A stretch of DNA of 64,000 bases from Rhynchopus sp. YZ270_cl-10 (GCA_964035575.1 OZ037843.1:496001-560000), one strand, 5' to 3'; shown: positions 5,357-63,744, counted from the first letter of the stretch. The notes: generated by a model not told the origin, from the sequence alone. A program made the numbers and translations.

Positions 5357-5532
5357 TACCTGGGTACCTGGGTACCTGGGTACCTGGGTACCTGGGTACC
5401 TGGGTACCTGGGTACCTGGGTACCTGGGTACCTGGGTACCTGGGTACCTGGGTACCTGGGTACCTGGGTACCTGGGTACCTGGGTACCTGGGTACCTGGG
5501 TACCTGGGTACCTGGGTACCTGGGTACCTGGG
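5357..5532. repeat. (TACCTGGG)x22 tandem repeat
   Basis: Perfect 8-bp array read directly. Confidence 0.97.
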
Positions 5533-10267: not shown

Positions 10268-10739
10268 TATAACAGAGGAATTATTTCATATACATTATTT
10301 TCTGACGAAAAGAAGGTATAGAGGGGTGCTAAAAATGTACCCTTGCTTTTTTTTTTACAGAGAAAAAAAAAAGAGAGAGAGAGAGAGAGAAAACCTGAAA
10401 AATAGTGCAAATGCCTCACCACACACTGGAGGGACATCGGCGATGACATTCACATCGTTTTTCTTGCATCCTTTTTTACACCCTCACTTTTTTTTGAAAA
10501 TTTTCGTTGTATTAGTGCAGACCACCCGAGGATGAGATTGGTCTACACACGTCTTTTCTTTTTTTCTTTTTTCTTTTCATTGTTCTTCTTTTTTTTGGCT
10601 ATCGAACAGCTAAAAAAAAGGGGATTATTTTTTGTGATAAATTGTTGAGCAAGTTTTTAATTATTTTTTTGATATTTCGACAAACGGGATGCCATCGCAT
10701 TTTTTTTTTTTTTTGATGGCCAGCACAGTGGCCTTTCGC

Positions 10740-10801
10740 CGTTTCGTGGTTACCGTTGCTACATCATCTTCCCGCCTCCACTCGTCCAGAAATGAACGGG
10801 G
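10740..10801 (-). ncRNA. Decayed permuted hammerhead ribozyme
   Basis: Minus strand: CCCG-tt-CATTT-CTGGACGA-GTGG-ag-GCGGG..tGTA-GCAACG-gtaa-CCAC-GAAAC. Core and stem I are mutated. Confidence 0.5.
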
Positions 10802-11279
10802 ATAAATGGGAACCCAGGATCATGGCTTCCCGGGTGAGATTGGTTCGGCTTCAGGCCTTCCCTGCGCCAGATGACTGTCACGGCTAAGTTTTTAGAAGAG
10901 CGGGAAAAAAGTAAACATGAGACAATGAGGAAAATGAGGAAACTGAGGACATGGATCACTTATCATCAAAAAAAAAAAAAATAAATAAATAAATAAATAA
11001 ATGGACGCTAAATGGGGGGTGCGGTGAGTGGTGAAGTTATTAAATAACAACACGCTGACGGATGGTAATGATGATGGTGATGGTGGAAGGGGGAAGAGGG
11101 ATGGATGGGTATAGGACTTTTGATAATTTGTTAGTTTGGGTGATACAACCAAGTTTTGCAACAAACATTATTAGCATAGAAACCCGAGGATGTGCTCTGC
11201 TATTGCGTCGACAATCGCCCGAGTAATCCCATCAGGTGGGAGAATTCGGGTCTGTACTCAATGTTGGCCGAAGCCTTTA

Positions 11280-32254: not shown

Positions 32255-32510
32255 TGCTATTTTGCTTGTTACCAGGGTAACAAGGCCACCGTGTACACAA
32301 ACGAATAGTCAGAAGGACTACAACGTGGGACCACCAGTCGTAATGACTATGTACCAAACTAGTTGCAAAACAACGGTCGTTTGGATCAGTAGCACTACTG
32401 GTAGTCGTCCTGACTAGTCCGCCGTGTATGTGACCGGGGGGAGAACATCTGAGGGGGGGTGGACCCCAACTATGCAGTCCTACATCCATTTTTTCGCGGT
32501 TTTCCATCTG
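32255..32510 (-). mobile_element. Structured retroposon-like repeat headed by a hammerhead remnant
   Basis: The body is near-identical to ~36210-36410. Its right end matches 60515-60570, including the 3' half of the ribozyme. Confidence 0.55.
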
Positions 32511-32748
32511 CACGACGGGACCCAATGACAAGTGACAAGTGAATCACTTGTCATATTTATGACAAGTGAAATGACAAAAAAGTCACTTGTCATGACAAGT
32601 GAATAGCCTATATCCCCATAGAAAATCACTTGTCATGACAAGTGGACAAGTGGCTCACTTGTCATTCACTTGTCATTTACTTGTCACCCATTTCACTTGT
32701 CATTCACTTGTCATTTTCACTTGTCACTTGTCACTGGGTCCCGTCGTG
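32511..32748. mobile_element. CAC...GTG MITE (CMC/EnSpm-like)
   Basis: TIR CACGACGGGACCCA(A/G)TGACAAGTG, flanked by TG/TG, with TGACAAGTG internal repeats. Confidence 0.85.
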
Positions 32749-34283: not shown

Positions 34284-37200
34284 TTGTGAGATGCTTTCAC
34301 CATACCCATTTGTTAATTTTTTAATCACAATCGTTTATCGTGCAGCATCAGCTGTACAAAGAAAAAGAGGATTTTTTTTTTTTGCGGTCGTTTTGGTTTT
34401 TGGAGGTCAAGCTGAAAAATATATTTTTAAAAAAGAGGGCTGAAAGGTTTGTAGTGTCTGCGTGGGTAAGGAATAGGGGAATTGATACTTTTTTTGTTGT
34501 GTCGACAATCACCTGCGATGTGCAGGATCTGTACATCAATGTCACCCGAAGGCTATTTTTCTTTTTCTTTTTTGATAAATTTTTGGAGTAATATTTTGTT
34601 TGCAACAACAAAACTGAGAGACGGGGTATGATAATAGCATCCTTCCCCGCCCCCCCCTCCTTTTTTCGGCAAAAGTATCTTTTGTTTTTTCTGAGGGAGT
34701 ATTTGAGGATGGGCTGGCGGACTGCAAGATTAATTATCCACATAAGTTAGGATACACACAAATCTCGAAAAGAAAAAAGAAAAAAAAAAAATAGTGTCCA
34801 CAAATGGAAAGACGGGAGTATTGAAGTGAGTAAAAAAAAATAGGGGACACAGACACCAAAAAAAAATAATAATAATAAAGGCTGGATGGAGGAAAAAGTG
34901 TTCCAACATATGCAATCAATAAATTGATAGCATAGGAGGAGGGATCAAAAAATGTTCCCGGGTTTTGCGAGAAAAAAAATTGTTTGATTATAGACTACTA
35001 TCACAAGATAGGCAGCCACAATTTTTTTCCTCACAGGATCCTTGAGACTAAAAAATAATGAGGCTGAAAGGGGGAAAAACAAAAAAAGGGGGGGGGGAAG
35101 AAGAAGAAGAAAGACTTTGTGGGCGGTTGAAAGAGTAATAAAAAAAAGCGGGGTTAAAAAAATAAAAAAAAATAAAAACGTAACCAAAGAGAAAAACTGC
35201 AAAGATGACACTAAGTTTCTCAGTGCTTAGAATAAAAGGGGGGTTTGAAAATGTTTTTTTGTTTGTTTGTTTTGAAAGTGCTTTGTGCGGCAGAATAAAA
35301 GGGGAGTTTTGTCACTTAGTAAAAAGTTGAAAATACAGTTTGTATGGGAAGACTGATAAGGAGGCTAAAAAAATATATAGAGTTGTTTCATATACATTCT
35401 TTTTCTGACAAAAAGAAGGTACAGAGGGTGCTAAAAATGCACCCTTGCTTTTTTTTTTTTTTTTTGAATGTAGAGTTGAAATACAAAAGCCCTCTCGTGA
35501 ACAGTGTACCTTGTGTACAATGACCGGCTGTACCGGGGTGGGGGGGGGGGGGAAAGAAACGTTTATAAGATTATACTAAGCCTCTCGTGCTTAGTCACCT
35601 TGATCGCATTCGTATTTTATACGAATATGAATATTTTTTCACGCATTTTTAAAAAAAGGGAAAACCGTGTAACAAAGAGCAATGCCGTTTGTGTTAATGT
35701 AGGGGGGGGAGGGAGGGAAAATGACGGGAGTTTTTTTTTTTTTGAAAACTTGGTTGTTTTAGTGTAGACACCCGAAGATGAACTCCACTACTTTTTTTTT
35801 TTTGTTTTTTTGTATAAAAACTGCGTATTTATGGGGTCGGTTGGTACAAGTTCATGACAAAAAAAAAAAAATGGGCATTTTTTTTTGTCATAGGGAAAGC
35901 AAAGTTCCCTTGGGGAGGGGAGGAAATTGGAAGGGGGTTAGGATGAAGGGAGGGAAACAAAAGATTTATTTTATTTTTATTTTTTTGATAAATTCTTGGA
36001 GTAGTGTAGTTGCTTCGGTTTGTGTTGCCACAGTTTGTGCAATCTCCACTTTCTTCTTTTTTTCGAACAGAAACGTCTCTCACTCCATTTGGAAAAGGGG
36101 ATTTTTATGAAAAATTTGGCATTTTATGGAGAGAAAAAAACAAAAAACAAAAAATAAACAAGCTTGAGCTGAGTTCTGTCACAAGCTACAAAGTAATAAG
36201 GAAAAAGTTTGTTATTTTGCTTGTTACCAGGGTAACAAGGCCACCCGTGTACACAGAGGACTAATCAGCAGGACTACAACGTGGCACCACCAGTCGTAAT
36301 GACTATGTACCAAACTAGTTGTAAAACAACGGTCGTTTGGATCAGTAGCACTACTGGTAGTCGTCCTGACTAGTCCGCCGTGTACGTGACCGGGGGGGAG
36401 AACACCGGGGGGGCGGGGTTTTGTTTTGATAAATTAGAAATTAACTTCTGGTATTTTTTTCAGGCACGATGAGAGGGGGGTGAAACCTGAACGAGAACAC
36501 TGCAAACATTTTTAGAGTACCATAAAAAAATTGACTTTTCCGGGGCGCAAAAAATTCTGGGAACAAAAACTGGGACAATCGGGGGAAAATCTGAACCATT
36601 TTTACGCTCCAGAAAGAAAAAATAATTTTACGATATTATTATCGCTAGACTAGAGTGGGTTGGGGTGTGTGTGTGTTTGATAACGGGTTTAGAGTGGGTA
36701 ACGCCTGAACGGAGTATGGCCCACTGTGCGTGTGTGTGGGTATCCAGGGGGAGACCCACTTCACAGCAACAGCTGCTTTAACAAAAGTAGCATAGTGGTG
36801 GGGGGTTATTGTACTTTTTATTTTGAAGATTTTGTGGGAACAGTGTATGTTGCCGTGCAAACACCACTGTCTCTGTTTTTTTTTAAAATTGTAAACTTTT
36901 AACAATCCTTTAAATAGGGCCAATATTCACAAAAGCCCTTTTTTTTTTTTTTTTGTACTACGGAAGGTACAGATGTAGTTCGTCCTCAACACACCCCCCT
37001 CTTTTTTTTCTTTTTTTCCTCTTGCACGTTTACGAGATGTGCAAAAAAATTTAAAAAAAAAAAAAAAATGGTAATGCTAAGCGTATCATGCTCAACCACC
37101 TTTAAAAGAGGGGGGCGAGTAAAGAATTCTCATAAAAGGCAGGTGCAGCCGTTGGTTTGAGTCCTAATTGCCAACGGTAAGTAAACGGTGAAAAAAAAAA

Positions 37201-42756: not shown

Positions 42757-43295
42757 TCTAAAAAATAAACGAGCTGAAGGAGAAGAAGAAGGAGGAAGTA
42801 GGGGTATGTGCAGAAGGGAGGAGAGAGAAGCGAGTAATGAGGAAGGAGCGAGGGGGGACAAGTATCCCTGTTGGGTGGTGAATAATTTTTTTGTAGGAAG
42901 TGGGGGTGGGGGGAGAAGTATTATTTGAGTGATAAAAAAAAAAAAAATACGCGAATGCACAGCGAGCCGGTCAACCCTGCGTAAAAGCCTATGTGTACAA
43001 CGGAAGGTATAGACAGCGTTCGTCCCAGTGGTCTTGATGTATGTCAAATGATGGTCGATCCGTGTGCGCGTAAGCTACCCTAGTTTTGAAAAGATGGAAA
43101 AAAAGCAGGAGTGGAGGGAGAGGGGGGGGAGACGTTATTTTACCCCGTCTTTTTTCTAGGTACATTTTTTTTTTTTTTTTTGCTTTTTTTTTTTCGTTTT
43201 GGTTTATTTTTGATAATCTGGGTTGCGTTTTCCCCCCCTTTTTTTCTTATAATCTCTTGGTACATCATCAAAAGCTAATCTAGTTTTTTTTTTTT

Positions 43296-44049
43296 TTTTC
43301 TCAACTGAGGAAAAGTAGCTCTGAGCAAACCCCGTGGAAGAAGTGTGAGGATAAATTCACTTTTCCTCACACATAGCCACTTTTCCTCACGCAATTTGGA
43401 AAAGTAGCAATAATTTTTGGCTGGGGTTTGTGTAGAAAAAAGCCTATGTGTGAGGCTTTTTTTGGTGTGAGGAAAAGTAGAGGGGGGGGTCGAAAAAAAA
43501 ATTGGGTGGGAGAGTGGGTCATTTTGATATCTCTGCTTCACATTTTGTCACCGTGACCAACATGACCATTTTTTGGTCCATTTTTTCGGCCAAAAATTTG
43601 GTACCACAGGGCTATACCATATTCTGGGATTATCAATCTTTTGAAAATACGGCCTGGTATTCGGGCCAAAATGTCCCATGGGGCCCATAGTAGCCTTACT
43701 GGGTGTCGAGCAGAGCCAATCTTAATAGTGAAATTCGATTTTCTGTGAAAAATATTCCCACCAAAAAATCGTCTTTTTTTTTCTGCATATTCACCCCACA
43801 CTTCTTCCACGGGGTTTGCTTAGAGCTACTTTTCCTTCAGTTGAGAAAACTATTATATTCTGGTGAAATATTCACTTTCCCTCCACTCGTGCCCTTTCAG
43901 AAACTCGTGGCTGACTTTATCCCACTCGCTTCGCTCGTGAGATAAAGTCTATTACCCCACTCGCTTCGCTCGTGGGGTAAAATGCCACTCGTTTCTGAAA
44001 GGTACACTCGTGTGAGGAAAAGTGAATATTTCCTCAGACGAATAAATAG
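43296..44049 (-). mobile_element. Family H1, copy 2 (uninterrupted)
   Basis: Near-identical to 1318-2476 without the SINE; T-rich flanks. Confidence 0.88.
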
Positions 44050-44130
44050 CTATTTTTTGAAAACTTGGAAAAATCACGTGTCGCAACAGAATATATCCAC
44101 GCCACGCCCACCCTCCGCCCAGCTTACTTC

Positions 44131-44192
44131 CATTTCGCGGTCTACGTTGAGATGTCCTACTCCCGCTACCGCTCGTCAGTCAACGAAACGGG
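44131..44192 (-). ncRNA. Non-circularly permuted hammerhead ribozyme
   Basis: Minus strand: CCCG-ttt-CGTTGA-CTGACGA-GCGGT-ag-CGGG-agtagga-CATC^TCAACG-tag-ACCGC-GAAATG. Confidence 0.75.
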
Positions 44193-45120
44193 TATAATTG
44201 GAACACAAGGGAGCAACTCCTTGTGCGAAGTAAGTGACTCGGGGGGGGTTTTTTTTCATTTACCGACCCTCCCCCTTGAAATTGTCCCTGGCGGCAAAAT
44301 ACCGGTTTTTAGGGGGGACAATTTCATGGGGAGGGTCGGTATTTATTTTTTTAGCACAAAAAATTTAAAAAAAAAAAGCACTTCAACGTAGGGTGGGTCC
44401 ATCACTTTAAGTCATATGAGAATAGGTTGTGGTCACCTAACTATGGTTGGAGACAAAGGTACACAGTGGCCACGTGACATACAAATGACATTGCTATCAT
44501 TTGCCCTTTGGTACGTAACACCGCCACACGGCAACACGCTTTCATAGCATTGCTTTCTTTTTTTTTTTTGCGTGAAATGCATAAAAACAAACATAAAAAG
44601 TCATACATTTCAAAGTACGATGCAAAATAGAATACTATTGTAGCAATGTTACCCGGAGGGGGTACATGGTTCACTGTGAATTGGGGAGGAGGGGAGTTTG
44701 AAAATGTTTTTTGCATGTTTCGAAAGTGCTTTGTGCTCTGTTTAATTTTGCTTGATAGAGAGGAGGGGGGCAGACCACGACCCTTTGTAAGCACCACAAA
44801 AAATATTCGCCGTTGACTATTTGTGTCTCTTTTTTTTTTTTGTAGATTACCCTGAGGGCAGGCTCACTTTTGTCTGTGTTTAGTGCTCGGAGGGCCCAAA
44901 AATTTTCCGCGCGCGCGCGCAAGAAAAAAACATGGAAAAAAAACATGGAAAAAAAAAATAAGAAAAAACACACACACACACACACACGTTGCACGGTGTG
45001 CATGATTGGTGAAACTTTTAAACGCCGGCATTTGCATTTCCGGAATTCGTCCGGCCAGTGGTGGGGTCAATTTGCCGAAATGGACAAGTTCTCGTTTTTG
45101 GTCAATTTCTGCACAGTACA

Positions 45121-45471
45121 CAGTATACACAGTATACACAGTATACACAGTATACACAGTATACACAGTATACACAGTATACACAGTATACACAGTATAC
45201 ACAGTATACACAGTATACACAGTATACACAGTATACACAGTATACACAGTATACACAGTATACACAGTATACACAGTATACACAGTATACACAGTATACA
45301 CAGTATACACAGTATACACAGTATACACAGTATACACAGTATACACAGTATACACAGTATACACAGTATACACAGTATACACAGTATACACAGTATACAC
45401 AGTATACACAGTATACACAGTATACACAGTATACACAGTATACACAGTATACACAGTATACACAGTATACA
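45121..45471. repeat. (CAGTATACA)x39 tandem repeat
   Basis: Perfect 9-bp array read directly. Confidence 0.97.
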
Positions 45472-45485
45472 CAGGGGATTGGGAG

Positions 45486-48400
45486 TACAGTACAGTACAG
45501 TACAGTACAGTACAGTACAGTACAGTACAGTACAGTACAGTACAGTACAGTACAGTACAGTACAGTACAGTACAGTACAGTACAGTACAGTACAGTACAG
45601 TACAGTACAGTACAGTACAGTACAGTACAGTACAGTACAGTACAGTACAGTACAGTACAGTACAGTACAGTACAGTACAGTACAGTACAGTACAGTACAG
45701 TACAGTACAGTACAGTACAGTACAGTACAGTACAGTACAGTACAGTACAGTACAGTACAGTACAGTACAGTACAGTACAGTACAGTACAGTACAGTACAG
45801 TACAGTACAGTACAGTACAGTACAGTACAGTACAGTACAGTACAGTACAGTACAGTACAGTACAGTACAGTACAGTACAGTACAGTACAGTACAGTACAG
45901 TACAGTACAGTACAGTACAGTACAGTACAGTACAGTACAGTACAGTACAGTACAGTACAGTACAGTACAGTACAGTACAGTACAGTACAGTACAGTACAG
46001 TACAGTACAGTACAGTACAGTACAGTACAGTACAGTACAGTACAGTACAGTACAGTACAGTACAGTACAGTACAGTACAGTACAGTACAGTACAGTACAG
46101 TACAGTACAGTACAGTACAGTACAGTACAGTACAGTACAGTACAGTACAGTACAGTACAGTACAGTACAGTACAGTACAGTACAGTACAGTACAGTACAG
46201 TACAGTACAGTACAGTACAGTACAGTACAGTACAGTACAGTACAGTACAGTACAGTACAGTACAGTACAGTACAGTACAGTACAGTACAGTACAGTACAG
46301 TACAGTACAGTACAGTACAGTACAGTACAGTACAGTACAGTACAGTACAGTACAGTACAGTACAGTACAGTACAGTACAGTACAGTACAGTACAGTACAG
46401 TACAGTACAGTACAGTACAGTACAGTACAGTACAGTACAGTACAGTACAGTACAGTACAGTACAGTACAGTACAGTACAGTACAGTACAGTACAGTACAG
46501 TACAGTACAGTACAGTACAGTACAGTACAGTACAGTACAGTACAGTACAGTACAGTACAGTACAGTACAGTACAGTACAGTACAGTACAGTACAGTACAG
46601 TACAGTACAGTACAGTACAGTACAGTACAGTACAGTACAGTACAGTACAGTACAGTACAGTACAGTACAGTACAGTACAGTACAGTACAGTACAGTACAG
46701 TACAGTACAGTACAGTACAGTACAGTACAGTACAGTACAGTACAGTACAGTACAGTACAGTACAGTACAGTACAGTACAGTACAGTACAGTACAGTACAG
46801 TACAGTACAGTACAGTACAGTACAGTACAGTACAGTACAGTACAGTACAGTACAGTACAGTACAGTACAGTACAGTACAGTACAGTACAGTACAGTACAG
46901 TACAGTACAGTACAGTACAGTACAGTACAGTACAGTACAGTACAGTACAGTACAGTACAGTACAGTACAGTACAGTACAGTACAGTACAGTACAGTACAG
47001 TACAGTACAGTACAGTACAGTACAGTACAGTACAGTACAGTACAGTACAGTACAGTACAGTACAGTACAGTACAGTACAGTACAGTACAGTACAGTACAG
47101 TACAGTACAGTACAGTACAGTACAGTACAGTACAGTACAGTACAGTACAGTACAGTACAGTACAGTACAGTACAGTACAGTACAGTACAGTACAGTACAG
47201 TACAGTACAGTACAGTACAGTACAGTACAGTACAGTACAGTACAGTACAGTACAGTACAGTACAGTACAGTACAGTACAGTACAGTACAGTACAGTACAG
47301 TACAGTACAGTACAGTACAGTACAGTACAGTACAGTACAGTACAGTACAGTACAGTACAGTACAGTACAGTACAGTACAGTACAGTACAGTACAGTACAG
47401 TACAGTACAGTACAGTACAGTACAGTACAGTACAGTACAGTACAGTACAGTACAGTACAGTACAGTACAGTACAGTACAGTACAGTACAGTACAGTACAG
47501 TACAGTACAGTACAGTACAGTACAGTACAGTACAGTACAGTACAGTACAGTACAGTACAGTACAGTACAGTACAGTACAGTACAGTACAGTACAGTACAG
47601 TACAGTACAGTACAGTACAGTACAGTACAGTACAGTACAGTACAGTACAGTACAGTACAGTACAGTACAGTACAGTACAGTACAGTACAGTACAGTACAG
47701 TACAGTACAGTACAGTACAGTACAGTACAGTACAGTACAGTACAGTACAGTACAGTACAGTACAGTACAGTACAGTACAGTACAGTACAGTACAGTACAG
47801 TACAGTACAGTACAGTACAGTACAGTACAGTACAGTACAGTACAGTACAGTACAGTACAGTACAGTACAGTACAGTACAGTACAGTACAGTACAGTACAG
47901 TACAGTACAGTACAGTACAGTACAGTACAGTACAGTACAGTACAGTACAGTACAGTACAGTACAGTACAGTACAGTACAGTACAGTACAGTACAGTACAG
48001 TACAGTACAGTACAGTACAGTACAGTACAGTACAGTACAGTACAGTACAGTACAGTACAGTACAGTACAGTACAGTACAGTACAGTACAGTACAGTACAG
48101 TACAGTACAGTACAGTACAGTACAGTACAGTACAGTACAGTACAGTACAGTACAGTACAGTACAGTACAGTACAGTACAGTACAGTACAGTACAGTACAG
48201 TACAGTACAGTACAGTACAGTACAGTACAGTACAGTACAGTACAGTACAGTACAGTACAGTACAGTACAGTACAGTACAGTACAGTACAGTACAGTACAG
48301 TACAGTACAGTACAGTACAGTACAGTACAGTACAGTACAGTACAGTACAGTACAGTACAGTACAGTACAGTACAGTACAGTACAGTACAGTACAGTACAG

Positions 48401-48530
48401 TACAGTACAGTACAGTACAGTACAGTACAGTACAGTACAGTACAGTACAGTACAGTACAGTACAGTACAGTACAGTACAGTACAGTACAGTACAGTACAG
48501 TACAGTACAGTACAGTACAGTACAGTACAG
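45486..48530. repeat. (TACAG)x609 microsatellite
   Basis: Perfect 5-bp array spanning 3045 bp. Confidence 0.98.
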
Positions 48531-50147
48531 TTCTTCGTAGAACTTCGTTTTGCAATAAGAAAGCCTCACCCTTCTTCCCAGAATTCCTCCCAGAACCAGC
48601 TGGGCACCAATACTGGAAATATCGTAAAAGCATAACTATTTTGGACGATTTTGTGGACGATTTGGCTGCTACTCGGAAAATCCATTTGTTTGCGGGTTTC
48701 CCGGAACCTCACAAAAATAAATCCCATCGATCATTTTTTGAAACATTTCACAATATTTTTGTAGGAACTTGGTGCACAAAATCACCTCAAGCCCCACTAC
48801 TCTCTCCCTCACACCTTTTATTACTACAATGTTTTTTTTTTTTCCCATGTTTTTTTTTTTGGAATTCTCAAAATTTTCCGCGCGCGCGAGCAATAAACAC
48901 AGGCAAAAGTGAGCCTGCCCTGAATGTTTTTTTTTTGAAAACTTGGTTGTATTAGTGTAGCCACCCTAGGCTAGAGTATGCTCCACTATGGATTTTTTTT
49001 TTGTCACCTCACGAAATGAAGGAGGAAATAGAAACAACGCACTTTGAACACACTTTGCGGTTCTAGGGAAGAACCGCGTTGCAGAGCCACGCCTCACCAA
49101 ACAGGTCGAGGTGTGTGCGTTTCACCACAACCTCTCCCATGGGTTTTATCGTGTGATGAGTGTTAAGTTTCTATTTTGTGTCTAACCCCCTTGCTGGGCA
49201 CCTCGGGTGTGTGTTGAATGACTGCACTATGCCGCCTCACTCTCCTCATAGTTTTCGGGTTGACGGGTTTGCGGGATCAACAAAAAAAAAAAAAAAATGT
49301 TCCCAAAACTAAGCACATCAAAAAAAAATAGAGGGAACTGAAAAAAAGGAAAAAAAAAAGAGGGAAAAAAAAAACGTTCAAAACGTGCTTTGTTGAAATA
49401 GGTGAGAATCTCAGAAGCGGTGCAAGAAACCCCCAAGAAGACGGCTTCAGTGAAAAAAAAAGGGGGGTGTGACTGTGTGGTAGTGAGGTAGTGACTACTG
49501 TGCCTGCTGTTGTTTATTCAATTGCAAGGTTTTTTTTTTGTTGTGGGTGTGTGTGTTTTCTTTTCTTTTTTTCTTTTTTTGATAAATTGTTAGAGTAGTG
49601 TAGTTGTCTCGGTTGTGTTGCCACAGTTTGTGCAATCTCCACTTTCTGTTGTTGTTGCTGTTGTTGTTGTCGAACGAACCACCCACCTGAGGTAGGATCG
49701 GTATTCAATTGTCGCCCGAGGGCTATTGACTGAAGAATTTAAGAGATATATCTCCAAGGGTAAAAACACGGGATGCGCTCTGCCTTTTTCTTCTTTTTTT
49801 GTTTTTTTTTTTTTTTTTTTGAAAACTTGGTTGTATTAGTGTAGCCATCCTAGAGCGCGCTCCACTAACTTTTTTTCTTTTTTCTTTTTTTTTTTTTTTT
49901 GATTATTTTTTCTCGAAAAGATCGAAAAAACAAAAGTGCAAAACAATAAATAATAAATACCGCCCGATCCGTGTCAGGTCTGTTACAAAAAAAAACAAAA
50001 AATAAGGCTAAAATACTTGCGAAGTGAACCCACATATCCACTACGGCAATCAACACCAACCACTAGCCTCTACGCACCTCCACACCAAAGCCGCCCCTTT
50101 CTCCTTTGCTGCGCCCAGTGGGCAGGCTGCGGCTCTGCGTCGGGACG

Positions 50148-53304: not shown

Positions 53305-55791
53305 TCAGTCTTTCTCTATCATTTCGACCAGCGCCGCAGTAAACGCGGTGTACTCAGGGAGACAACGTGACCACTGCTTCAGCTCGGCTTGGTGCACCAG
53401 AGAGTGCATGAAGTTGAGACAGCGTTCCCGCAGCATGTCGCCATTTGGGGTCTCGCACGCTGCGTTCACCTGCGCGAAGGAAAATGCAAGATCGGTCATA
53501 TCCGCCAATGTCTCAAGCTCGGTAAGCAAACGCGCATACACGATCCGCTGCTTCTTGTACGCACGCCTCGAGAACACCAAGGTATACATCGCGTCGTATG
53601 TCAACGAAACCCTCTGGGTAAATGCCTCACACGCAGCCACAATCTTCCTCAAGGTACTGCACCGTACGAAGCACCGCCCCGCCACATTCGCCACCTTCCC
53701 GACAAATTGCACCTCCGTCACGGCCGGCACCTCCATCCCCTGCACCCCACCTGCCCACTTCTCTAGCCTCTCCCTCAACACTCTCGCATTATCTGGCAGC
53801 CTATTTGGATCATCCGCGATCCGTTCATTCTGCCCCGCAACATCAACACCACTGGACCCACCAGAAGGAGGGGGGAACCCTGTACCACGCAGCTCAATGA
53901 GACGGAGGCGTTCAGTGATCATAGCGCGTCCGGTGGTTTGAAAAAGCGCGGATTCTGTGTTAAAGAGCGCCTGGGGTGCCATCTGGGTGTGGTAGTTTGC
54001 GACGTAGCGCAGAGGGGTAGCGAATGTGGTGGCAAATCGTTCGCGTTGTTCTGGGGGTGCGAGAGCGACGCCGCAGTGGATCACGACAGCGAGAAGTGGC
54101 GACAGAATTTCGACCGGGATGTCTTCTGGGTGTATCGAGGCGTGCGCCAGGTCGTCACGACCACGTGGCCCATCCTGCCATATCCAATGATCATATAAGA
54201 CATCCGTTGCCCCATTGCCGAGGAATGGAAGCAGATGGTTTGCACCCGGCGACAAAATTTCGTCCACAGTAACAAAGAGCTCATCCTTGATGGGTGCACG
54301 CCAACGGTGGTCTAGATCATTCACCGCCGCGTAAACCCTACGTAACGCAGATTCGAGAAGCACTGAAACCAACGCTGCCGCTTTGTACACACTGCAGGCA
54401 TCAGATGCAACACCGTTCATACACACCCGACCTCCATTTGCCAAACCCTCAGTTGCGCTGAGTTTTGAAGCCTTTTCTAGATACAATGTACTATAGTAGG
54501 CCTCAAGCGCCTCACCCCATTCGTTCTCTCTCGAGGAAAGAAAAAACGCGCTGTTTGCAACCAAATCCAAAAAGGCGTTTTTCCCGATCCCCAGCAGCGC
54601 TTCCGTCAGCTCCGTCGGTGTAAGATCTATCCCCCGCCTTTTGAGACCTCCGGTCCATTCTTTTAGATCAAAGAGAGGCCCCCCTTTGTGAGCGGACGCT
54701 CTCTTCGCAGTGATGTCCATCAACACAAACGGGGTTTCTTCTGTGATGTAGGATATCCTCTCTGGAAGACCTCGCAGTTTTTCCTCTACCCCAAATCTCT
54801 CCAATGCGTTGGCGTACTTCTTTGCTATTAATGGTTTGGTCTGAAGCATTGCGGCGACCGCTTTAAAACATTCTGCACGAACCTCTTCTTCGCACCCCTT
54901 TACCTCCCCAAAGGGTCGGGTAACATCATATAGAATGTCACCAATACTCACAACACTATGAGGATTTGATATAACAGATTTCAAAGAAACTTTATGCAAT
55001 GAAAGAATTATGTGAAGGAGAAGAACAGCATAAGAAGGATGTAACTCTTCTGCCGAAAGAAAATTGTGCCAAACCAGGTTGCGTAGAGAAAGTCCGTGGA
55101 GAGGGCCGAAAAGGGCGCGGAAGAGAAGGATAGTCTTAACCCCGAGAAGCCTTTTGAGGAATTCATTCTGGAGAAGGTCGGTCGATTTGGTTTCTCGAAG
55201 GGTGATAGCAGCACCACCTCCCCCTTTACCCCTCCCTCCCCATACCAACACCGCGGTTAAGGCGCGCTCCAAATATGAAACACATAGCATGAATGCAACC
55301 ATCTGATCCACTCTCGATCCCTTCATCAATGTTATAACCACCTCAATCACCCCCTTAGGGAAGGTTCGGAGCGCTCTCGGAACCGCGAGACTTTCAAAGT
55401 CCGAATGGAGATCCGATGCGCAGCATTTGAGACGTTCAACAATGGTGAGGTAGCTGGATTCGTCTGGGTGGATCTCATTTTTCTCCCCTTTTTGCGTAGA
55501 TGAAGGCAAATCTCGGGTACGTTTGTAAGACCCCCAGAGGGGTAAAGCAGAGTCGGGAACACATTTTTCGGCAAGCTGGCAGAGATCGAGAAATCCGTCT
55601 TTGTCGGTGAGCGTGGTGGAGGTGGTGGAGGTGGAGGTGGTGTTGTGATTGCCCTCAATCCGGCACAACGTTTGCGTCACATCAAACACAGCAGCCTCTT
55701 CACACTGTGCAGCCAGACGTCCAGGGCTGCCACCACCCAAAATATCTAACACCACACGGGACACTTTGTACCGTGGTGAGACGGCTGGCAT
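53305..55791 (-). CDS. ERMARD: ERMARD-like (DUF4209) protein, 828 aa
   Basis: Long ORF. The motif LERAL...FGPLHGLSLRNLVWHNFLS resembles ERMARD GLNLRNxLWHGF, and there is a second GPRGRDDLAH motif. First ATG at 55791. Confidence 0.8.
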   Translation of the reverse strand: MPAVSPRYKVSRVVLDILGGGSPGRLAAQCEEAAVFDVTQTLCRIEGNHNTTSTSTTSTTLTDKDGFLDLCQLAEKCVPDSALPLWGSYKRTRDLPSSTQKGEKNEIHPDESSYLTIVERLKCCASDLHSDFESLAVPRALRTFPKGVIEVVITLMKGSRVDQMVAFMLCVSYLERALTAVLVWGGRGKGGGGAAITLRETKSTDLLQNEFLKRLLGVKTILLFRALFGPLHGLSLRNLVWHNFLSAEELHPSYAVLLLHIILSLHKVSLKSVISNPHSVVSIGDILYDVTRPFGEVKGCEEEVRAECFKAVAAMLQTKPLIAKKYANALERFGVEEKLRGLPERISYITEETPFVLMDITAKRASAHKGGPLFDLKEWTGGLKRRGIDLTPTELTEALLGIGKNAFLDLVANSAFFLSSRENEWGEALEAYYSTLYLEKASKLSATEGLANGGRVCMNGVASDACSVYKAAALVSVLLESALRRVYAAVNDLDHRWRAPIKDELFVTVDEILSPGANHLLPFLGNGATDVLYDHWIWQDGPRGRDDLAHASIHPEDIPVEILSPLLAVVIHCGVALAPPEQRERFATTFATPLRYVANYHTQMAPQALFNTESALFQTTGRAMITERLRLIELRGTGFPPPSGGSSGVDVAGQNERIADDPNRLPDNARVLRERLEKWAGGVQGMEVPAVTEVQFVGKVANVAGRCFVRCSTLRKIVAACEAFTQRVSLTYDAMYTLVFSRRAYKKQRIVYARLLTELETLADMTDLAFSFAQVNAACETPNGDMLRERCLNFMHSLVHQAELKQWSRCLPEYTAFTAALVEMIEKD

Positions 55792-56082
55792 TGTGGGGCC
55801 TTTTTTTATGTACTCAGCGCAAAAAAAAAAAGGATACAAAGTGTGTGAACTGACCGCGAATTTCTGCGATAAAGGAATTCAAAAATGCGGTGTAATCTGT
55901 TGGGGTGTTTGTCAGAAAGTTGTTGTTTTTGCTTTGTGCTCTTTTTGTTTTGGTGGTCTTTAAAAATGTACTATTTGCTTTTTTGTTTTGTTGTTGCTTT
56001 TGTGTTTTGGATCCATGACCAATTGGTCTTCAGGAATCTTTTTTCGTGTTTTTCAAAATAAAAGAAAAGGAAAAGTTAAAAA

Positions 56083-56703: not shown

Positions 56704-57556
56704 TGAAGAAAAAGGGTTCAAGAAAAACTGCATGTTGCATCGTGCTCGTAGCATCGATAGGCCACCCCGCAACTGGGTTCGTAGGCTTCTTAGTCTACCT
56801 CGGGCGGTTATTGTAACGAAGACCTTTTGAGAGGCTATAGTTATTAGTAAAACTGCCGTCTAACATGAAAAATCAGCATCGCGTACTGATATCCATGAAG
56901 TACGTAGGCATTGCAGACATTCGTGGAGTCTTTCCCTTCGGATTCCATAGAAAAGAAAAAAAAGGTTTTTGTTTTTTGTTTGATGACATGTACAGCAACT
57001 GTTTTGTAGAGTATGTTTTTCTAAGTTTGTAGACATCAAGTCAAAGAGAAGGGGTGCGTTACTTTGTTTGAGATTACGACTTATCCACGATCTTCGAACT
57101 AAGAAAAGGTTTTCCATAAGACTCAAATAAGAGTGAAGAAAAAGGGTTCAAGAAAAACTGCATGTTGCATCGTGCTCGTAGCATCGATAGGCCACCCCGC
57201 AACTGGGTTCGTAGGCTTCTTAGTCTACCTCGGGCGGTTATTGTAACGAAGACCTTTTGAGAGGCTATAGTTATTAGTAAAACTGCCGTCTAACATGAAA
57301 GATCAGCATCGCGTACTGATATCCATGAAGTACGTAGGCATTGCAGACATTCGTGGAGTCTTTCCCTTCGGATTCCATAGAAAAGAAAAAAAAGGGTTTT
57401 GTTTTTTGTTTGATGACATGTACAGCAACTGTTTTGTAGAGTATGTTTTTCTAAGTTTGTAGACATCAAGTCAAAGAGAAGGGGTGCGTTACTTTGTTTG
57501 AGATTACGACTTATCCACGATCTCCGAACTGAGAAAAGGTTTTTCATAAAACTCAA
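56704..57556. repeat. Tandem duplication, 430-bp period
   Basis: Units start at 56704 and 57134 and are near-identical. Confidence 0.93.
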
Positions 57557-58711
57557 GTAAAAAAGAAAGAGGAAAAGGAGATTTGACATTCAATACGAGT
57601 CGTTCAACCTTATCCTTCTTTTGCAAATGTACTTTTCTTATCATATAAAGCCACGTTTTTATATTTTTTCAATTGTTTGTAAAAAGTAAAAATGGAAAAG
57701 GGTTTTACTCAATCCTCAAATAGGAGTTGAGTGAGCATGTTGGGGTCTGCGGAATCTGTTGGGGTGGTATAAAATAGTAACTCTGATAGGTAAGTAAGAG
57801 GAAAAAAGGTTTTTTCGTTGATTGCACAATTACCCGTTTGAGGGGTGATTGGCGACTGTATCTGAGGAACTATTTCTCCTTTAAGCTACGCTTGTAGGTA
57901 TAACAAAAAAAAGTTTTCAATTTGAACAAACCCTTTCAGGTCAACACTCACCCTCACCCTCCAACCGGTAGTCCTGGAATATTAGGTGTACTCCAGACTG
58001 TCTGGTAACAGCCTAAGTGATCTTCTGAGGTCAAATGAGCAGAAATGAAAACAAAAAAACACAAATTATCATTTTCATTTTTATTTTCAAAAGAGGAAAA
58101 CAAACCAGAAAGGGTAGTTGAAAACGTGCTAAAAGCGTAGCTCGGTCGAGGGGGGAAAGAAGAAAAGTTTATAAGATGACCCTAAGCCTCTCGTGATTAG
58201 ATTATTCATTGGTTTATTCATCAGTCATTTGTTTTTTTTTTGTGTGCCATTGCTACTCGTGGGTGGCAATTTGTTTTAAGTAAGCCTCTCGTGCCTTAGT
58301 CACCTTATCAAAAATGTCAAGAGACCACACCGACTGACATATCAGCCAATCACGTGAACCTGAAAAGGTTTACCCAAGAGTTGGTCCAGTTGTCCTCAAA
58401 GCCGTCACACCCCGAGGGGGGGGAGGTGTGCTGTCTGTTTTCCCTGTTGTGGCAACAACAGGGAGGTCCCCTCCGTATAGCGGTAAAATGGCACCCAACC
58501 GCCGGGACACGGTCCCGGGTTTACTTTGGATAGAGCAAATTTTTTTTTTGATTATAGACTACTATCACCTAGATAGGCAGCCACAGTTTTTCTTTCACAG
58601 GATCCTTAAAAAGAGAGCAAATAGAAGGGAGTACGCTTTGTACGATACCAAGATCGCGTTAGTCACCTTAACGGGGGGAAGAAATTGAAAATTTTGTTTT
58701 GATAGACTACT

Positions 58712-59619: not shown

Positions 59620-60548
59620 ACTACTATCACTAGATAGGCAGCAACGGGTTTTCTTCGCAGGATCCTTAAAAAGCGAGCAAATAGAAGGGAGTACGCTTTG
59701 CAGTAGGAGGTGTGTACTCTGGATAGAGCACATAGAGCAACCACGTACTGCTTTGACAGCGTTAAAGTCATGAGAGTGAATACCAAGTATTTTTTAAAAA
59801 AATAAATAAAAATACCTCCCGCACACCCTGGAAAGGGGGGGGCGGAACAACAACAATGGAATTGCATTTTTTTTATTTACAGCCAAAGTGATTGACCTTG
59901 CTTCAATCTTGCGCACATCGCGCTCATATGTGCCTGTACATCGTTCGGGTGAAAAGAACGTTCCTCCAAAAATGGTGTCAAAAACAGTAAAATCACCTCA
60001 CAAGCCACTGTATGTGTAAAAGGGGCAAAAATAGCCTAAAAACACGGGGAAAAATACCCAAAAAAAAAAGGGGGTCAAAAAAAAAAAATGTATTTTTGCC
60101 AAAGCCCCCAGCCGCCGGAAAATGGTTTTTGGGCACCGCAAAAGGAGATGGTGGACTGTGCACGACAGGCGAATATGTCAACACCAAAAACGGCATGCCT
60201 CGTTCTTGTGGTCAATAGGAGAACATGGCAACATGGCAACGTGCGTCACGACTGCTTAGGCAGAGCGGAGGCCCCAAACGAACGGTTCACTAGGCATACA
60301 CTTGATGCGAGTCGCATGCGAGAATCATTCTCGTTCACATAGAAGGGTTTTGGTCGTGCGAGAATGAGCAAGAATTGTACGACAATGCGAGAATGCGACT
60401 CGATCGAGTGTATGACCAGGGGGATAAAGAAAACAAAAACAAAACAAAATCGACTTGAAACACAAAAACCCTCTCGTGAACAGTGTACCTTTTGGTACAA
60501 ATGACCGGCGGTACCGGGGGTGGACACCCAACCATGCGGTCCTACATC

Positions 60549-60617
60549 CATTTTCGTGGTTTACATCTGATATGTTCTACTCCCGCTTCCACTCATCAGC
60601 CAGATGAATGAAAGGGA
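60549..60617 (-). ncRNA. Non-circularly permuted hammerhead ribozyme
   Basis: Minus strand: TCCC..CATCTGG-CTGATGA-GTGG-aagc-GGGA-gtagaa-CATA^TCAGATG-taaa-CCAC-GAAAATG (one extra A). Confidence 0.65.
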
Positions 60618-60999
60618 TCATTGCAAACACAGGTTAATGGCCTGTGTGATGTATGGTCCGGTTGGGTTGGGTTGGGAAAACAAAACAAAAACAAGGATTA
60701 TAGGTTTGGAAAAATGGGCCTTCCCATACCAGTAAAAAAAACACACACAAAACAAAAAAGACACAAAACGTCACAAAAAGCTCGCCAGAATATTTCTGTC
60801 ACTATTGTGGGTTACTGTGGGAATGGATTGTGAACCTTCCAGGATTGCTTTCTAATCATCGCATTGCACGTAACGGGGGGGGAGAAAAAATGGTGCTGCA
60901 AATTACCAGGTTATTTTGAACTCTGGCTTGCAAGGAAGGGTTGCCAAGGTTGCCGACGGAAGTCGGCTCAATGAAGGCAAAATGGTTACGATATCTGTA

Positions 61000-61304: not shown

Positions 61305-63398
61305 CTAATACACACTCTCTCTACTGCCGCACTTCGTAACAACTCTGTAGCACTCCTTGTACGGAACGAGAACCTTCTCGACTGCAGACAGCAGTGTTGT
61401 GCCCTCGGGAGGCTCGAACAGACACACCACACCGTCGCGCACAGCCTCTTCGCACAGCGTCCAGCTCCGGCGCACAGTTGTCCCCATCACCGTCACAAAG
61501 CGCTGCTTGCGTGCCCCCACATCACCATGCTGGATCAGCCCGCTTGCGAGGCCAACACCGTGCAGGGTTGCCTTCACGACCATGCGTTGTGCAAAGCGGA
61601 TCGCATTCTCCATGTGTGCAGGGGCAGGGCGGCTTACGTTCCACGACACGCAGACACGGCTGCCAAGGAGCGTCACCAGGCTTCCGCCACTTTGGCTGAG
61701 TGCGACGGTAAGTGTCGAGAGGCCCGCGTTAATGTCGTTCAGTGTTGCATGGCGTTCGTCTCGGACTGCTAGGTCCATCACACCCACAGTGCCGGACACC
61801 TGTCGTGCAGAAGAGGGTACAACGACAGACTGAAGCGACGAAGTGGAGTGCGTCGAGCCAGTTGCCTTCGACACTAAGCTTCCCTTGTGAAATACGCGCA
61901 AGTCACCAAGGGGCCGCCCCTTCCGTCTCCCGAGCGTCACAGGCCACACAGGACACACAAATATCGTATCACTCACGCCCTTCAGGTCAAGTGATTCTGT
62001 CTCACCCACAACAGCACTGCACGCACAACAGTCAGACGTCCACAGGTCAGAGGACACAGCAACAGCCCCAGGCGTGCATATGCTCTCAAGGCGTGACGCA
62101 ACGTTGACAGTGTGTCCGAAGTAGTCTGTCCGTCCAGTGAGTGCGTTCTGTTCGATGGCGACAGGGCCGGTGTTGACACCAATGCGCACAGTGAGGCCAC
62201 CCCACAGAGAGTCTTGTGGTGTGCAGATGGGGACGTTGAGGAGCGACGCAGGCCAGTCCGCGTGGAGCAGCTTCTCGTGTACCTGCAGAGCAAAGTTTAT
62301 CCCGTCTGCTGTTGTCGCAAAGGCAATCATGAAGGCGTCGCCAATGGTTTTGACTTCGTACCCACCAAACACCTGCATCACCTCCCTCATGACACGGTTG
62401 TGGGTATGCAACGCAGCGCCCATCCCGTCAGGTGCACACTCCCAGATCGACGTCGACGCACGGATGTCTGTGAACACAATCGTTGCTGTCCCACTCTCGA
62501 GCCCAGGTGGTGCCACAGATGTGTGCTGCACACCGTCCACCTCATCTTCCTCAAACAGCGCAGCAGGGAGGTAGGGACGGTACTTCCGCAGGTTCTCCTC
62601 CAACGTCTGCAGCGTTGCGCGCATCTCCTCTGGGAGCAACGTCTCTTGCGCCTCCAGCATGCGTGCCACGCCTTCCACGTCGTACCCAGCCAGGAGTGAG
62701 GCGATGTCCTGCACTGTAGCTATGGTCCGCTGCATGGCTTCCTTCTCCTTGAGTGCAGAACGCGCGAAGCCTCTCGTTGCTATAAAATCTACCGCAAATA
62801 TGCTGATGCTGGGGAGCAACGTGTACGGCGGGAACCCTACCGGGCAGGGCAATGCATCACACGCCGTGAGCTTGCTCAGGATCGCACGCCTCCCTTCGGC
62901 GCCTTCTTGCCACACGAGACCGGGCATTTCAAAGAGCCCAAAGCGAAAGCTTTCTTCGCACCCAAGAACAAGCAACCACACCACCACAAAGCACACCAGG
63001 CCGGTACTGTACCGTTCGGGCACCTCCACCACAAGCAACACATCGATGATGAGGACAAGCAGCGCCCAGTTCGTTTGCCCATGCGTACGTGCGTTCAGGT
63101 CCCACATCAGAAACCCTGCTGCGACGGTGTACAACCCCGGCACCACGACACACGTTGTGAGGTGCCGTTTACTGATAATAACGACTGCAGTCATCAGCGA
63201 CCCCAAGAAAACGCAGGAATATGCGAGAGTGCTTACGCTGAAGGGCGGCCGGCTCGACCAACGGTCGATCAACATGAGCATGCCCACCACAGGCAGTAGC
63301 ATGCCCATGAAGGAAACTATCAACAGCGTCAGCCGCTTCTTCTGCTCAGCTCTGTGCAGAGTTCCGTCAAGCGACAGTGCGTTCGCAAGACACTGCAT
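61305..63398 (-). CDS. Membrane-bound class III adenylate cyclase
   Basis: N-terminal hydrophobic helices; IVFTDI, YEVKTIGDAFM, RIGVNTG and DYFGHTVNVASR motifs (K/D indicate ATP specificity); degenerate second cyclase-like domain. The start is uncertain (the frame is open to 63443). Confidence 0.92.
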   Translation of the reverse strand: MQCLANALSLDGTLHRAEQKKRLTLLIVSFMGMLLPVVGMLMLIDRWSSRPPFSVSTLAYSCVFLGSLMTAVVIISKRHLTTCVVVPGLYTVAAGFLMWDLNARTHGQTNWALLVLIIDVLLVVEVPERYSTGLVCFVVVWLLVLGCEESFRFGLFEMPGLVWQEGAEGRRAILSKLTACDALPCPVGFPPYTLLPSISIFAVDFIATRGFARSALKEKEAMQRTIATVQDIASLLAGYDVEGVARMLEAQETLLPEEMRATLQTLEENLRKYRPYLPAALFEEDEVDGVQHTSVAPPGLESGTATIVFTDIRASTSIWECAPDGMGAALHTHNRVMREVMQVFGGYEVKTIGDAFMIAFATTADGINFALQVHEKLLHADWPASLLNVPICTPQDSLWGGLTVRIGVNTGPVAIEQNALTGRTDYFGHTVNVASRLESICTPGAVAVSSDLWTSDCCACSAVVGETESLDLKGVSDTIFVCPVWPVTLGRRKGRPLGDLRVFHKGSLVSKATGSTHSTSSLQSVVVPSSARQVSGTVGVMDLAVRDERHATLNDINAGLSTLTVALSQSGGSLVTLLGSRVCVSWNVSRPAPAHMENAIRFAQRMVVKATLHGVGLASGLIQHGDVGARKQRFVTVMGTTVRRSWTLCEEAVRDGVVCLFEPPEGTTLLSAVEKVLVPYKECYRVVTKCGSRESVY

Positions 63399-63744
63399 CA
63401 CAACCCCAACCCTCCCAAATAGCAAAGGCGGCAAGTGGACCACACCTCAGCACCCACAAAGAATATGTGTAACACCTATGTGGAGGATGGCGTGGACTGT
63501 CGGCCTCGAAAGACAAGCCGCGATAGCAACCCTACAATGGGTGTGCTCAAGCTGGTGCCTAAGGGGGTAGTGGTGCATGGAGGTTGTGCTCATTCTCGCC
63601 TCGAACGTCACACATAGTGCGATGTGAGGCCGGAGAAAGAGAGAAAGTGCCTCAACAACACCAAAGGGATGAAGTTTTGGGTATTTTGTATACAGTTATT
63701 CTCGCCTCGAACATCACACATGGTGTGATGTGAGGCCGGAGAAA

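Follow-up and report, generated by a model that had tools for sequence, protein, structure and literature searches.

Near position 60.6k of a 64-kb stretch of DNA (referred to here as the window; all positions are counted from its first letter), the minus strand carries a short structured repeat with the core motifs of a hammerhead ribozyme in an unusual order. The locus raises two linked questions: whether this repeat is one copy of a retroelement family with a self-cleaving module in its 5' half, and whether the ends of related copies agree with cutting at the site predicted from the fold.

Copies of the repeat in the window

Three diverged copies of a module of ~110 nt lie on the minus strand of the window, at ~60.6k, ~44.2k, and ~10.8k (hereafter c60k, c44k, and c10k). 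Their column identity is ~62–75% over ~110 nt, with c60k and c44k ~75% alike, and the flanks of the three copies do not align. Along the minus strand, the module runs from a covarying 5' hairpin through CUGAYGA and a UH site to GAAA. The corresponding elements in c60k (60652-60540) are the hairpin ACACAGG/CCUGUGU, CAUCUGG, CUGAUGA, GUGG, a conserved stretch of 13 nt, CAU-A, UCAGAUG, UAAA, CCAC, and GAAA. Searching the 64 kb with a covariance model of the three copies recovered these three and no other full copy (E about 1e-28 to 1e-29), together with a fragment at 32.5k at E 0.05.

The full c60k unit spans 60450..60676 on the minus strand, with approximate boundaries taken from the contig depth profile, and consists of a C-rich leader, the hairpin, the type-CSG hammerhead motif described below, a body of ~100 nt, and a conserved 3' end (60450-60491). 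It is followed by a T/G-rich, (TTTTG)n-like tail recognized from the sequence (60425..60449, minus strand), and T/G-rich sequence resembling this tail also occurs 5' of the unit (~60678-60700 and 60733-60779). The preliminary description had placed the unit at 60463..60655; the unit probably extends somewhat further, from ~60676 to 60450, plus the tail to ~60425. The second copy, c44k (44059..44245, module 44232-44122, minus strand), differs in its 3' part and shows, of the three, the motif closest to canonical, while c10k (10700..10840, module 10840-10725, minus strand) keeps the hairpin and the helix that we call J, and is followed by a 15-nt A-run (10714-10700). The three module heads are joined to three different 3' parts.

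Two partial copies belong with the c60k subfamily. The 3' continuation of c60k is shared, as the preliminary description held, with a fragment at 32455..32510 (minus strand; 86% over 57 nt) and with the 35k region (35538-35473; 89.7% over 68 nt). The latter forms part of a deeper 5' truncation of the c60k 3' part (35449..35538, minus strand) that ends in a 17-nt A-run (35465-35449). Homology between the 32.5k fragment and c60k begins at a C, the second base past the predicted cut.

A hammerhead motif of type CSG

Eckert et al. (2023; PMC10085705) divide the hammerhead into block C (CUGANGA with stem I and II strands), block G (GAAA with stem II and III strands), and block S (the cleavage site with stem III and I strands). 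In these terms the classic types I, II, and III have the orders CGS, GSC, and SCG, and three non-circular orders were reported. One of these, type CSG, comprises two unique, similar DNA sequences from soil metagenomes (CSG-1 and CSG-2) that showed cleavage in vitro; the authors regard the evidence for its biological relevance as weaker than that for type SGC.

The block order in c60k and c44k is C-S-G, as in the type-CSG non-circularly permuted hammerhead, going by the model given in PMC10085705, and the term “permuted hammerhead” in the preliminary description was thus well chosen. Block C comprises a stem I strand, CUGAYGA, and a stem II strand; block S a stem III strand, the UH site, and the other stem I strand; and block G the remaining stem II strand, GAAA, and the remaining stem III strand. 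In c60k, all on the minus strand, block C (60589..60606) contains CAUCUGG of stem I (60606-60600), the core CUGAUGA (60599-60593), and GUGG of stem II (60592-60589). Block S (60564..60574) contains CAU of stem III (60574-60572), A17 (60571), and UCAGAUG of stem I (60570-60564), and block G (60544..60559) contains CCAC of stem II (60559-60556), GAAA (60555-60552), an extra A (60551), UG of stem III (60550-60549), and the 3' strand of an additional helix, P1 (60548-60544). Both the stem I pairing CAUCUGG/UCAGAUG and the AUA site (60573-60571) are read on the minus strand just as first described, and the predicted cut falls at 60571|60570. Stem I has 7 bp with a U-G pair adjoining the core, and stem II (GUGG/CCAC) has 4 bp. 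Stem III needs a 1-nt bulge because of the one extra A after GAAA, next to the essential A15.1-U16.1 pair.

The minus-strand elements of c44k are a 6-bp stem I (CGUUGA/UCAACG, 44185-44180/44150-44145), the core CUGACGA (44179-44173), a 5-bp stem II with G10.1-C11.1 (GCGGU/AGACCGC, 44172-44168/44141-44137), an AUC site with the predicted cut at 44151|44150, GAAA (44136-44133) with A15.1-U16.1, and stem III AUG/CAU. The invariant core (C3 U4 G5 A6 N7 G8 A9, G12 A13 A14, A15.1-U16.1, and H17) is complete in two of the three copies, c60k and c44k, which share CUGA(U/C)GA, G10.1-C11.1, GAAA, and A15.1-U16.1, and have A or C as H17. The core of c10k reads UGGACGA instead of CUGANGA (U G for C3 U4, or one inserted G); with its core mutated, this copy is therefore likely inactive, and most likely dead.

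Full pairing of stem I (7 and 6 bp) and stem II (4 and 5 bp) is confined to the correct register; slid controls gave at most 3/6 and 2/4 pairs. Stem III is only 3 bp long: A-U, U-A, and G-C followed by mismatches in c44k, a bulged helix in c60k, and A-U, C-G, and G-U in c10k. The linker from stem I to stem II measures 3–4 nt, and the core halves lie 36–37 nt apart in the window copies. Counterparts of all four type-CSG helices can be drawn, stem III tentatively, and they agree helix for helix with the published Stockholm structure (PMC10085705). On this basis the module is predicted to self-cleave at 60571|60570 in c60k, and two of the copies may be impaired: c60k by its extra A beside A15.1 and a 4-nt insertion beside the J helix, and c10k by its mutated core.

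Additional helices

Beyond the hammerhead stems, three further helices were found, all on the minus strand. The 5' hairpin (P2) pairs ACACAGG with CCUGUGU in c60k (60627..60647), GCACAAGG with CCUUGUGU in c44k (44226-44203; strands 44226-44219/44210-44203), and ACCCGGGA with UCCUGGGU in c10k (10835-10812). It covaries in 3/3 copies, in agreement with the covariation among the 60.6k, 44.2k, and 10.8k copies that had been claimed earlier.

P1 is formed in c60k and c44k by the 5–6 nt just 5' of the hairpin, which pair with the bases directly past the stem III strand. It was identified by a slide test and in the nested minimum-energy folds of both copies as ACAUC/GAUGU in c60k (60652-60648/60548-60544) and at 44232-44227/44130-44125 in c44k. 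The pairing is complete in register (5/5 in c60k and 6/6 in c44k) and drops to at most 3 pairs when slid (-4 to +4 in c60k); its third pair is A-U in c60k and U-A in c44k. P1 is not part of the type-CSG model published with PMC10085705. We infer that stacking of P1 on the 3-bp stem III would offset the shortness of that stem, and that the leader, hairpin, and ribozyme would form one compact pseudoknotted domain of ~110 nt.

The J helix was found by folding in c60k, where its 5' strand UCCC (60614..60617) pairs with GGGA; it reads CCCGU/GCGGG in c44k (44192-44188/44166-44162) and also in c10k, and being invariant it is without covariation. Most copies of the family read CCCCG at the J 5' strand and lack 3–4 nt that are present in c60k at 60611-60614.

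Covariation, chance, and alternative folds

Between c60k and c44k, stem II contains one double change (U-A vs. C-G). For stem I the count depends on the register: three double changes when anchored on the core or, in the MAFFT register, a single double change with a one-base deletion matched between the two strands. Stems I and II together thus hold two to four double changes, depending on the alignment, and as this covariation comes from two or three related sequences, no significance test such as R-scape is possible.

A type-CSG descriptor matched the window twice (c60k and c44k) vs. 0 matches in 300 dinucleotide shuffles. To match, a site had to combine CUGANGA, UH, and GAAA with a stem I of 5 bp or more, a 4-bp stem II, a linker no longer than 8 nt, and two or more pairs beyond A-U; the descriptor was written after the data had been seen. 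The core, stem II, and GAAA alone occurred on average 0.1 times per shuffle. Folding z-scores are unremarkable (-2.1, -1.75, and -0.7). A competing nested hairpin buries the CUGAUGA core, with 12 bp in c60k and weaker pairing in the other copies; this hairpin could represent either an inactive conformer or the fold that actually forms.

Rfam 15 gave no matches at gathering thresholds over the whole window, and only noise up to E 10 around c60k and c44k; the missing hammerhead match is uninformative either way, because it is expected for the C-S-G strand order. Pattern scans for relatives returned one locus in viral contigs and at least 19 loci in metagenomes, none of them a true relative: 0/20 have CU before GAYGAG and all lie in G+C-rich sequence, so these 20 loci were rejected as chance matches.

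Several other RNA classes were also considered. Ordinary hammerheads of types I and III were ruled out, as the strand 5' of CUGAUGA finds no partner where those types need one, and an HDV-like double pseudoknot was ruled out by the absence of P3/P4 and of a G opening P1. Twister, pistol, hatchet, and hairpin ribozymes, C/D-box k-turn RNAs, snRNAs, and SRP, RNase P, and MRP RNAs were excluded by the lack of both an Rfam match and a motif fit by eye.

Family size and variation in sequencing runs

Contigs of three DNA runs from two organisms (X1, X3, and X4) were aligned to 60250-60900, with matches of at least 80%. The c60k unit was covered by 2260, 3132, and 1976 contigs in the respective runs, 609–727 of which fit partly only, and 43 contigs of the c60k family came from the small run X10, which is only presumed to be an RNA run; these contigs are no evidence of expression. 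The unit belongs to a family with thousands of dispersed copies. Summed contig depth reaches 1e5–1e6 inside 60448-60601, three to four orders of magnitude higher than in the flanks (~110–920). It steps down toward the 5' side of the element, to ~10% at 60602-60623 and ~2% at 60624-60645, and decays toward 60668-60689; part of this fall is an alignment effect, because most copies are without the 3–4 nt at 60611-60614 and homology continues beyond.

The majority of the depth differs from c60k at several positions, among them 60576 (85% C on the element strand) and 60538 and 60510 (over 90%). The extra A at 60551 is absent from 30–42% of the depth in X1, X3, and X4, and from 57% of the small depth in X10, which gives the canonical spacing. 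At 60600, A instead of G accounts for 12–14% of the depth, so that the U1.1-G2.1 wobble becomes U-A. No alternative letter reaches 5% at core positions in the three DNA runs (X10 has one at A9), but this is no evidence of constraint, because few positions anywhere in the unit vary.

Copy ends at the predicted cut

Among the loose ends listed on the 5' side in X1, X3, and X4, letters unlike the window occur only at 60568 and 60572. Loose ends at 60568 comprise 30, 45, and 34 contigs in X1, X3, and X4 (these were listed under 60553 because of an indel in an A-run), and those at 60572 comprise 18 and 21 contigs in X3 and X4. All ends listed from the DNA runs with non-homologous letters thus fall at most 2 nt from 60571|60570. 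In the small run X10, one listed end lies at 60570 (3 contigs), with a few elsewhere. Loose ends at 60608 and 60633 are alignment breaks, as the letters beyond them are homologous. The listed copy ends, besides which there are 595 more, spread over ~5 nt rather than marking a single bond.

On the element strand, T-rich sequence lies upstream of the loose ends. At one joint in the contigs the preceding sequence belongs to another copy's tail, suggesting that units are joined head to tail. Depth falls by 24–36% across the predicted cut site in the DNA runs. The clustering of copy ends at the predicted cut fits ribozyme processing, or reverse transcription of an RNA that ends there.

Retroelement character and coding content

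The units are short (~190–230 nt), non-coding, and dispersed at high copy number. Their tails vary, with A15 after c10k, A17 after the 35k copy, and (TTTTG)n-like sequence both after and before c60k. A search for target-site duplications gave only one weak candidate, of 9–10 nt at c10k. ARAGORN detected no tRNA in the window, and no Rfam match to a tRNA-, 7SL-, or 5S-derived pol III promoter appeared at E 10 around c60k and c44k. TRF found no tandem array at the copies, which are solo in the window; a non-LTR retrozyme was ruled out, since the copies are solo and ordered C-S-G rather than being tandem type I units.

From 194 stop-to-stop ORFs of at least 85 aa, 7 in a 3-kb microsatellite and 40 overlapping other arrays or large ORFs were removed, and the remaining 147 were scanned together with 6 large ORFs. 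None of these 153 window ORFs has an RT or GIY-YIG endonuclease domain in Pfam, the domains taken to mark an autonomous Penelope-like element, and no RT fragment was seen beside any copy among the window ORFs. The 147 smaller ORFs, including those overlapping c60k and c44k, contain no Pfam domain at all.

The window as a whole is eukaryote-like, with low coding density, microsatellites, and retroposon-like repeats. The only Pfam domains among the scanned ORFs are a cyclase (61305-63443) and DUF4209 (53305-55839). The cyclase ORF has look-alikes in the Atlas that are bacterial only, and for the DUF4209 ORF a word-limited search at E 1e-5 yielded no relative.

That the short repeat is a retroposon family is supported in outline. 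The preliminary description had gone further, to a ribozyme-processed retroposon family released from read-through transcripts, and had proposed looking for target-site duplications and an RT-encoding parent. The family itself stands in outline, by its thousands of dispersed copies, 5' truncations, A-runs, and non-coding sequence, and processing fits the copy ends. Release from read-through transcripts is conjectural, the duplications come down to the one weak candidate, and no RT-encoding parent was found within the 64-kb window (0/153 ORFs). Of the retroelements proposed for comparison, the trypanosomatid Ingi and L1Tc, with their HDV-like ribozymes, found no support, while Penelope elements proved to be the better lead, specifically those of the Naiad type.

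Comparison with known systems

Self-cleaving ribozymes are known from other short or non-LTR retroposons. Schistosoma Sm-alpha, a tRNA-derived SINE, has a hammerhead of type I, and R2 and L1Tc begin with HDV-like ribozymes, which cut at their own 5' edge, so that the ribozyme stays on the copied RNA. The window family resembles these elements in having a ribozyme, here a predicted one, inside such a retroposon. Unlike in the HDV-like ribozymes of R2 and L1Tc, the predicted cut in this family falls mid-module and would leave the 3' product without block C.

The nearest structural counterparts are CSG-1 and CSG-2, which, as published in PMC10085705, share with c60k and c44k the C-S-G order, the invariant core, the pseudoknotted crossing of stems I and II with a stem III that is putative in the window copies, and a helix formed between the sequence 5' of stem I and that following the first stem II strand. 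Outside the core, the two groups show no likeness in sequence. Compared to the window copies, CSG-1 and CSG-2 have a longer linker from stem I to stem II (5 nt vs. 3–4 nt), a longer stem III (5 bp vs. 3 bp), and a J helix of 8 bp that abuts directly, in contrast to 4–5 bp with spacers of 1–2 nt, whereas the window copies add the 5' hairpin P2 and the leader helix P1. CSG-1 and CSG-2 come from soil metagenomes with host and context not known, and their cleavage has been shown; the window family lies in a eukaryote-like genome in thousands of copies, with cleavage predicted from sequence alone.

Canonical Penelope-like elements and animal non-LTR retrozymes have type I hammerheads (C-G-S) in pseudo-LTRs or tandem arrays (Craig et al., 2021, PMC8557442; bioRxiv 10.64898/2026.07.22.740005). 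They resemble the window family in that a small hammerhead occurs both in retroelements and in short non-autonomous forms derived from them, some of which become extremely numerous, but the window copies are solo and of C-S-G order rather than type I in pseudo-LTRs or arrays. According to Craig et al. (2021), canonical hammerheads are absent from Naiad and Chlamys elements, which insert in microsatellites, where target duplications are hard to see. Some of these elements have core halves 35–50 nt apart and are flagged “HHR_half_core” (others “HHR_core”); the authors do not call them permuted.

By inspection, three 3' regions in the supplementary FASTA of PMC8557442 (Naiad_Parc and two Nippostrongylus Naiad elements) read as complete type-CSG hammerheads, with CUGANGA, a GUC site that pairs back 5' of the core, GAAA, and a J helix. 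RT-encoding elements with type-CSG wiring therefore exist elsewhere. Their core-half spacing of 35–50 nt is like that of the window copies, and one record has a T/G-rich 3' end like the c60k tail. In contrast, the Naiad elements in these sources are RT-encoding animal elements of 3.4–4.8 kb with stems III of 5–12 bp and the motif in the 3' region, whereas the window unit is ~220 nt with a short stem III, the motif in its 5' half, and no RT in the window. Three motifs of 10–11 nt from the window family have no occurrence in the PMC8557442 supplement, and no sequence is shared beyond the core.

Within the literature searched, which omits most subscription journals, Eckert et al. are alone in using “type-CSG” for a hammerhead. 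The same searches, with most subscription journals outside their range, returned no work linking Naiad, the hammerhead, and Eckert et al., and, judged by title or abstract start, no work on a permuted hammerhead in a SINE. The wiring itself is the known type CSG; what our searches did not find in print is the P1/P2 scaffold, the short stem III, and the retroelement setting.

Interpretation of the c60k locus

We consider it probable, from the motif and fold, that c60k is a copy of a very abundant short retroelement with a type-CSG hammerhead in its 5' module, predicted to cut its own RNA. Transcripts would fold into the pseudoknotted domain and be cut after A17 (c60k) or C17 (c44k), leaving the leader, hairpin, and block C on the 5' cleavage piece. 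The 3' products, with block G, body, and tail, would be reverse-transcribed by an RT supplied in trans, giving many copies that start at the cut. Any RNA left uncut, possibly because it adopts the alternative hairpin, would transmit the whole module. In a tandem or read-through arrangement, two cuts could release RNA of unit length, a route put forward for Penelope-like elements and retrozymes in the sources cited above. The partner RT would likely come from a Penelope-like element of the Naiad/Chlamys kind, or alternatively from a poly(A)-dependent LINE. A cut in the middle of the module counts against this reading, since the copied 3' product would lose its ribozyme, with no obvious gain for the element.

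The three copies could instead be fossils: the module would go back to a once-functional type-CSG hammerhead, and the copies would be dead, 5'-truncated tails of a longer element, such as an RT-encoding Penelope-like one with the ribozyme at its 3' end, rather than short non-autonomous units, with nothing cutting today. Depth that falls steadily toward the 5' side, as 5' truncation produces, would follow naturally, as would the lost core of c10k, the extra A and 4-nt insertion of c60k, and the presence of the same wiring in the 3' regions of three Naiad consensus sequences (PMC8557442). We nonetheless think such a fossil origin unlikely, since the similarity of c60k and c44k, to each other and in the flanks, ends at nearly the same place, 10–25 nt upstream of the hairpin, and this shared limit suggests a defined 5' end. 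Moreover, the core and helices of c44k are complete, no RT fragment adjoins any copy in the window, and the same head occurs on different 3' parts in the three copies, as it does in modular non-autonomous families.

A somewhat less probable reading is that the module is a structured but non-catalytic SINE head, serving as a promoter or RT-recognition element, with only a coincidental likeness to a hammerhead. GAGUGG and CGAAA would then be degenerate A- and B-box-like pieces, and their spacing of 36–37 nt lies within the usual range for the two boxes. The short, very abundant, non-coding unit, the A-runs at two copies, and the strong nested alternative hairpin suit this reading. Nevertheless, ARAGORN identified no tRNA in the window, Rfam tRNA and other models gave nothing at E 10, and every invariant hammerhead position is present in two of three copies. 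Four crossing helices also fit the type-CSG model of PMC10085705, with compensatory changes in helices for which a promoter would have no use, and the copy ends cluster at the predicted scissile bond. Chance assembly of CUGAUGA, GAAA, and meaningless pairings within a repeat appears highly improbable: the motifs are short and the descriptor was composed with the sequences in view, but 0/300 shuffles gave the full match found twice in the window, the core with stem II and GAAA averaging just 0.1 per shuffle, and the motif is kept, with paired changes, in two copies that differ at about one quarter of positions.

Returning to the reading of c60k as a copy of a self-cutting retroelement, a broader proposal can be put forward tentatively, with somewhat less than even confidence: type-CSG hammerheads may be the working ribozymes of a broad eukaryotic retroelement class, the Naiad/Chlamys-type Penelope-like elements and their short non-autonomous riders, which here would cut in vivo and have their cut RNAs copied back thousands of times, with P1 stacking on a 3-bp stem III as a new route to the fold.

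In the literature searched, the type-CSG order has so far been represented by two soil sequences, to which the window adds an unrelated sequence family with its own compensatory changes, in a genome and in thousands of copies, giving type CSG a host setting and a likely job in retroelement life. A cheap test is at hand, because copy ends within the genome itself mark the predicted cut. Together with the Naiad consensus sequences, the family would open to testing the old question of why some very successful Penelope-like elements seem hammerhead-free. If it is true that the cut RNAs of the riders are recopied, the genome itself would record the cleavage site, and type CSG would be no soil curiosity.

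Sequences adjoining the repeat copy near position 44 kb

The second minus-strand copy of the repeat family (c44k, 44059-44245) meets at its 3′ end, exactly and at an A-run (44059/44058), one end of a repeat present in two ~99% identical copies, at 43288-44058 and 1310-2485, the latter, near position 2 kb, having an additional 400 nt. CACGAG strings are plentiful in this repeat, and the covariance model built from the three hammerhead-module copies gave a weak match to it (E 0.13) at 43886-43982 and 2313-2409, with a hairpin-plus-stem layout. A short way 5′ of c44k is a near-perfect inverted repeat with arms of ~25 nt (ACCGACCCTCCCC...GGGGAGGGTCGGT, 44262-44335), followed by an A8C8 run; this may be a small foldback element.

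Tandem arrays and long open reading frames

Tandem arrays without a single error were found in several places, and error-free arrays of such length are uncommon. The region 45117-48531 contains a 3 kb (AGTAC)n array that is wholly uniform (609 units, 100% matches), adjoined by 40 perfect units of (TACACAGTA)n. Two more perfect arrays of 8-mers are located at 5356-5534 (GTACCTGG) and 12126-12311 (CTGTGTAC). A 430-bp unit occurs as two tandem repeats at 56704-57560, with 98% identity.

The window is otherwise poor in ORFs, with two long uninterrupted ones, both on the minus strand. The ORF at 61305-63443 encodes a class III cyclase domain protein within a G+C-rich island (54% vs. ~41%), and its Atlas look-alikes are exclusively bacterial. 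The other, at 53305-55839, encodes an 844-aa DUF4209 protein whose sole match at E 1e-5 in a word-limited search was itself.

Upstream sequences and Penelope-like elements

Palindromic units CACTTGTCA / TGACAAGTG are clustered at 32530-32740, immediately 5′ of the minus-strand fragment at 32455-32510, and TRF reports a period of 38 within this cluster (32655-32735). For the ~60450-60676 unit (c60k), (CCCAA)3 lies immediately 5′ of the C-rich leader, at 60661-60676; the majority sequence of the family, as given by the contigs with a loose end at 60633, differs from c60k there. In EN-minus Penelope-like elements, hammerheads have been reported together with reverse-complement telomere repeats, according to PMC8557442. 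The same paper characterizes the published consensus sequences of Naiad, a group of Penelope-like elements, as being without canonical hammerheads; on our reading of sequences in its supplement, Naiad_Parc and two Nippostrongylus Naiad records carry complete hammerheads of type CSG (block order C-S-G) near or at their 3′ ends.
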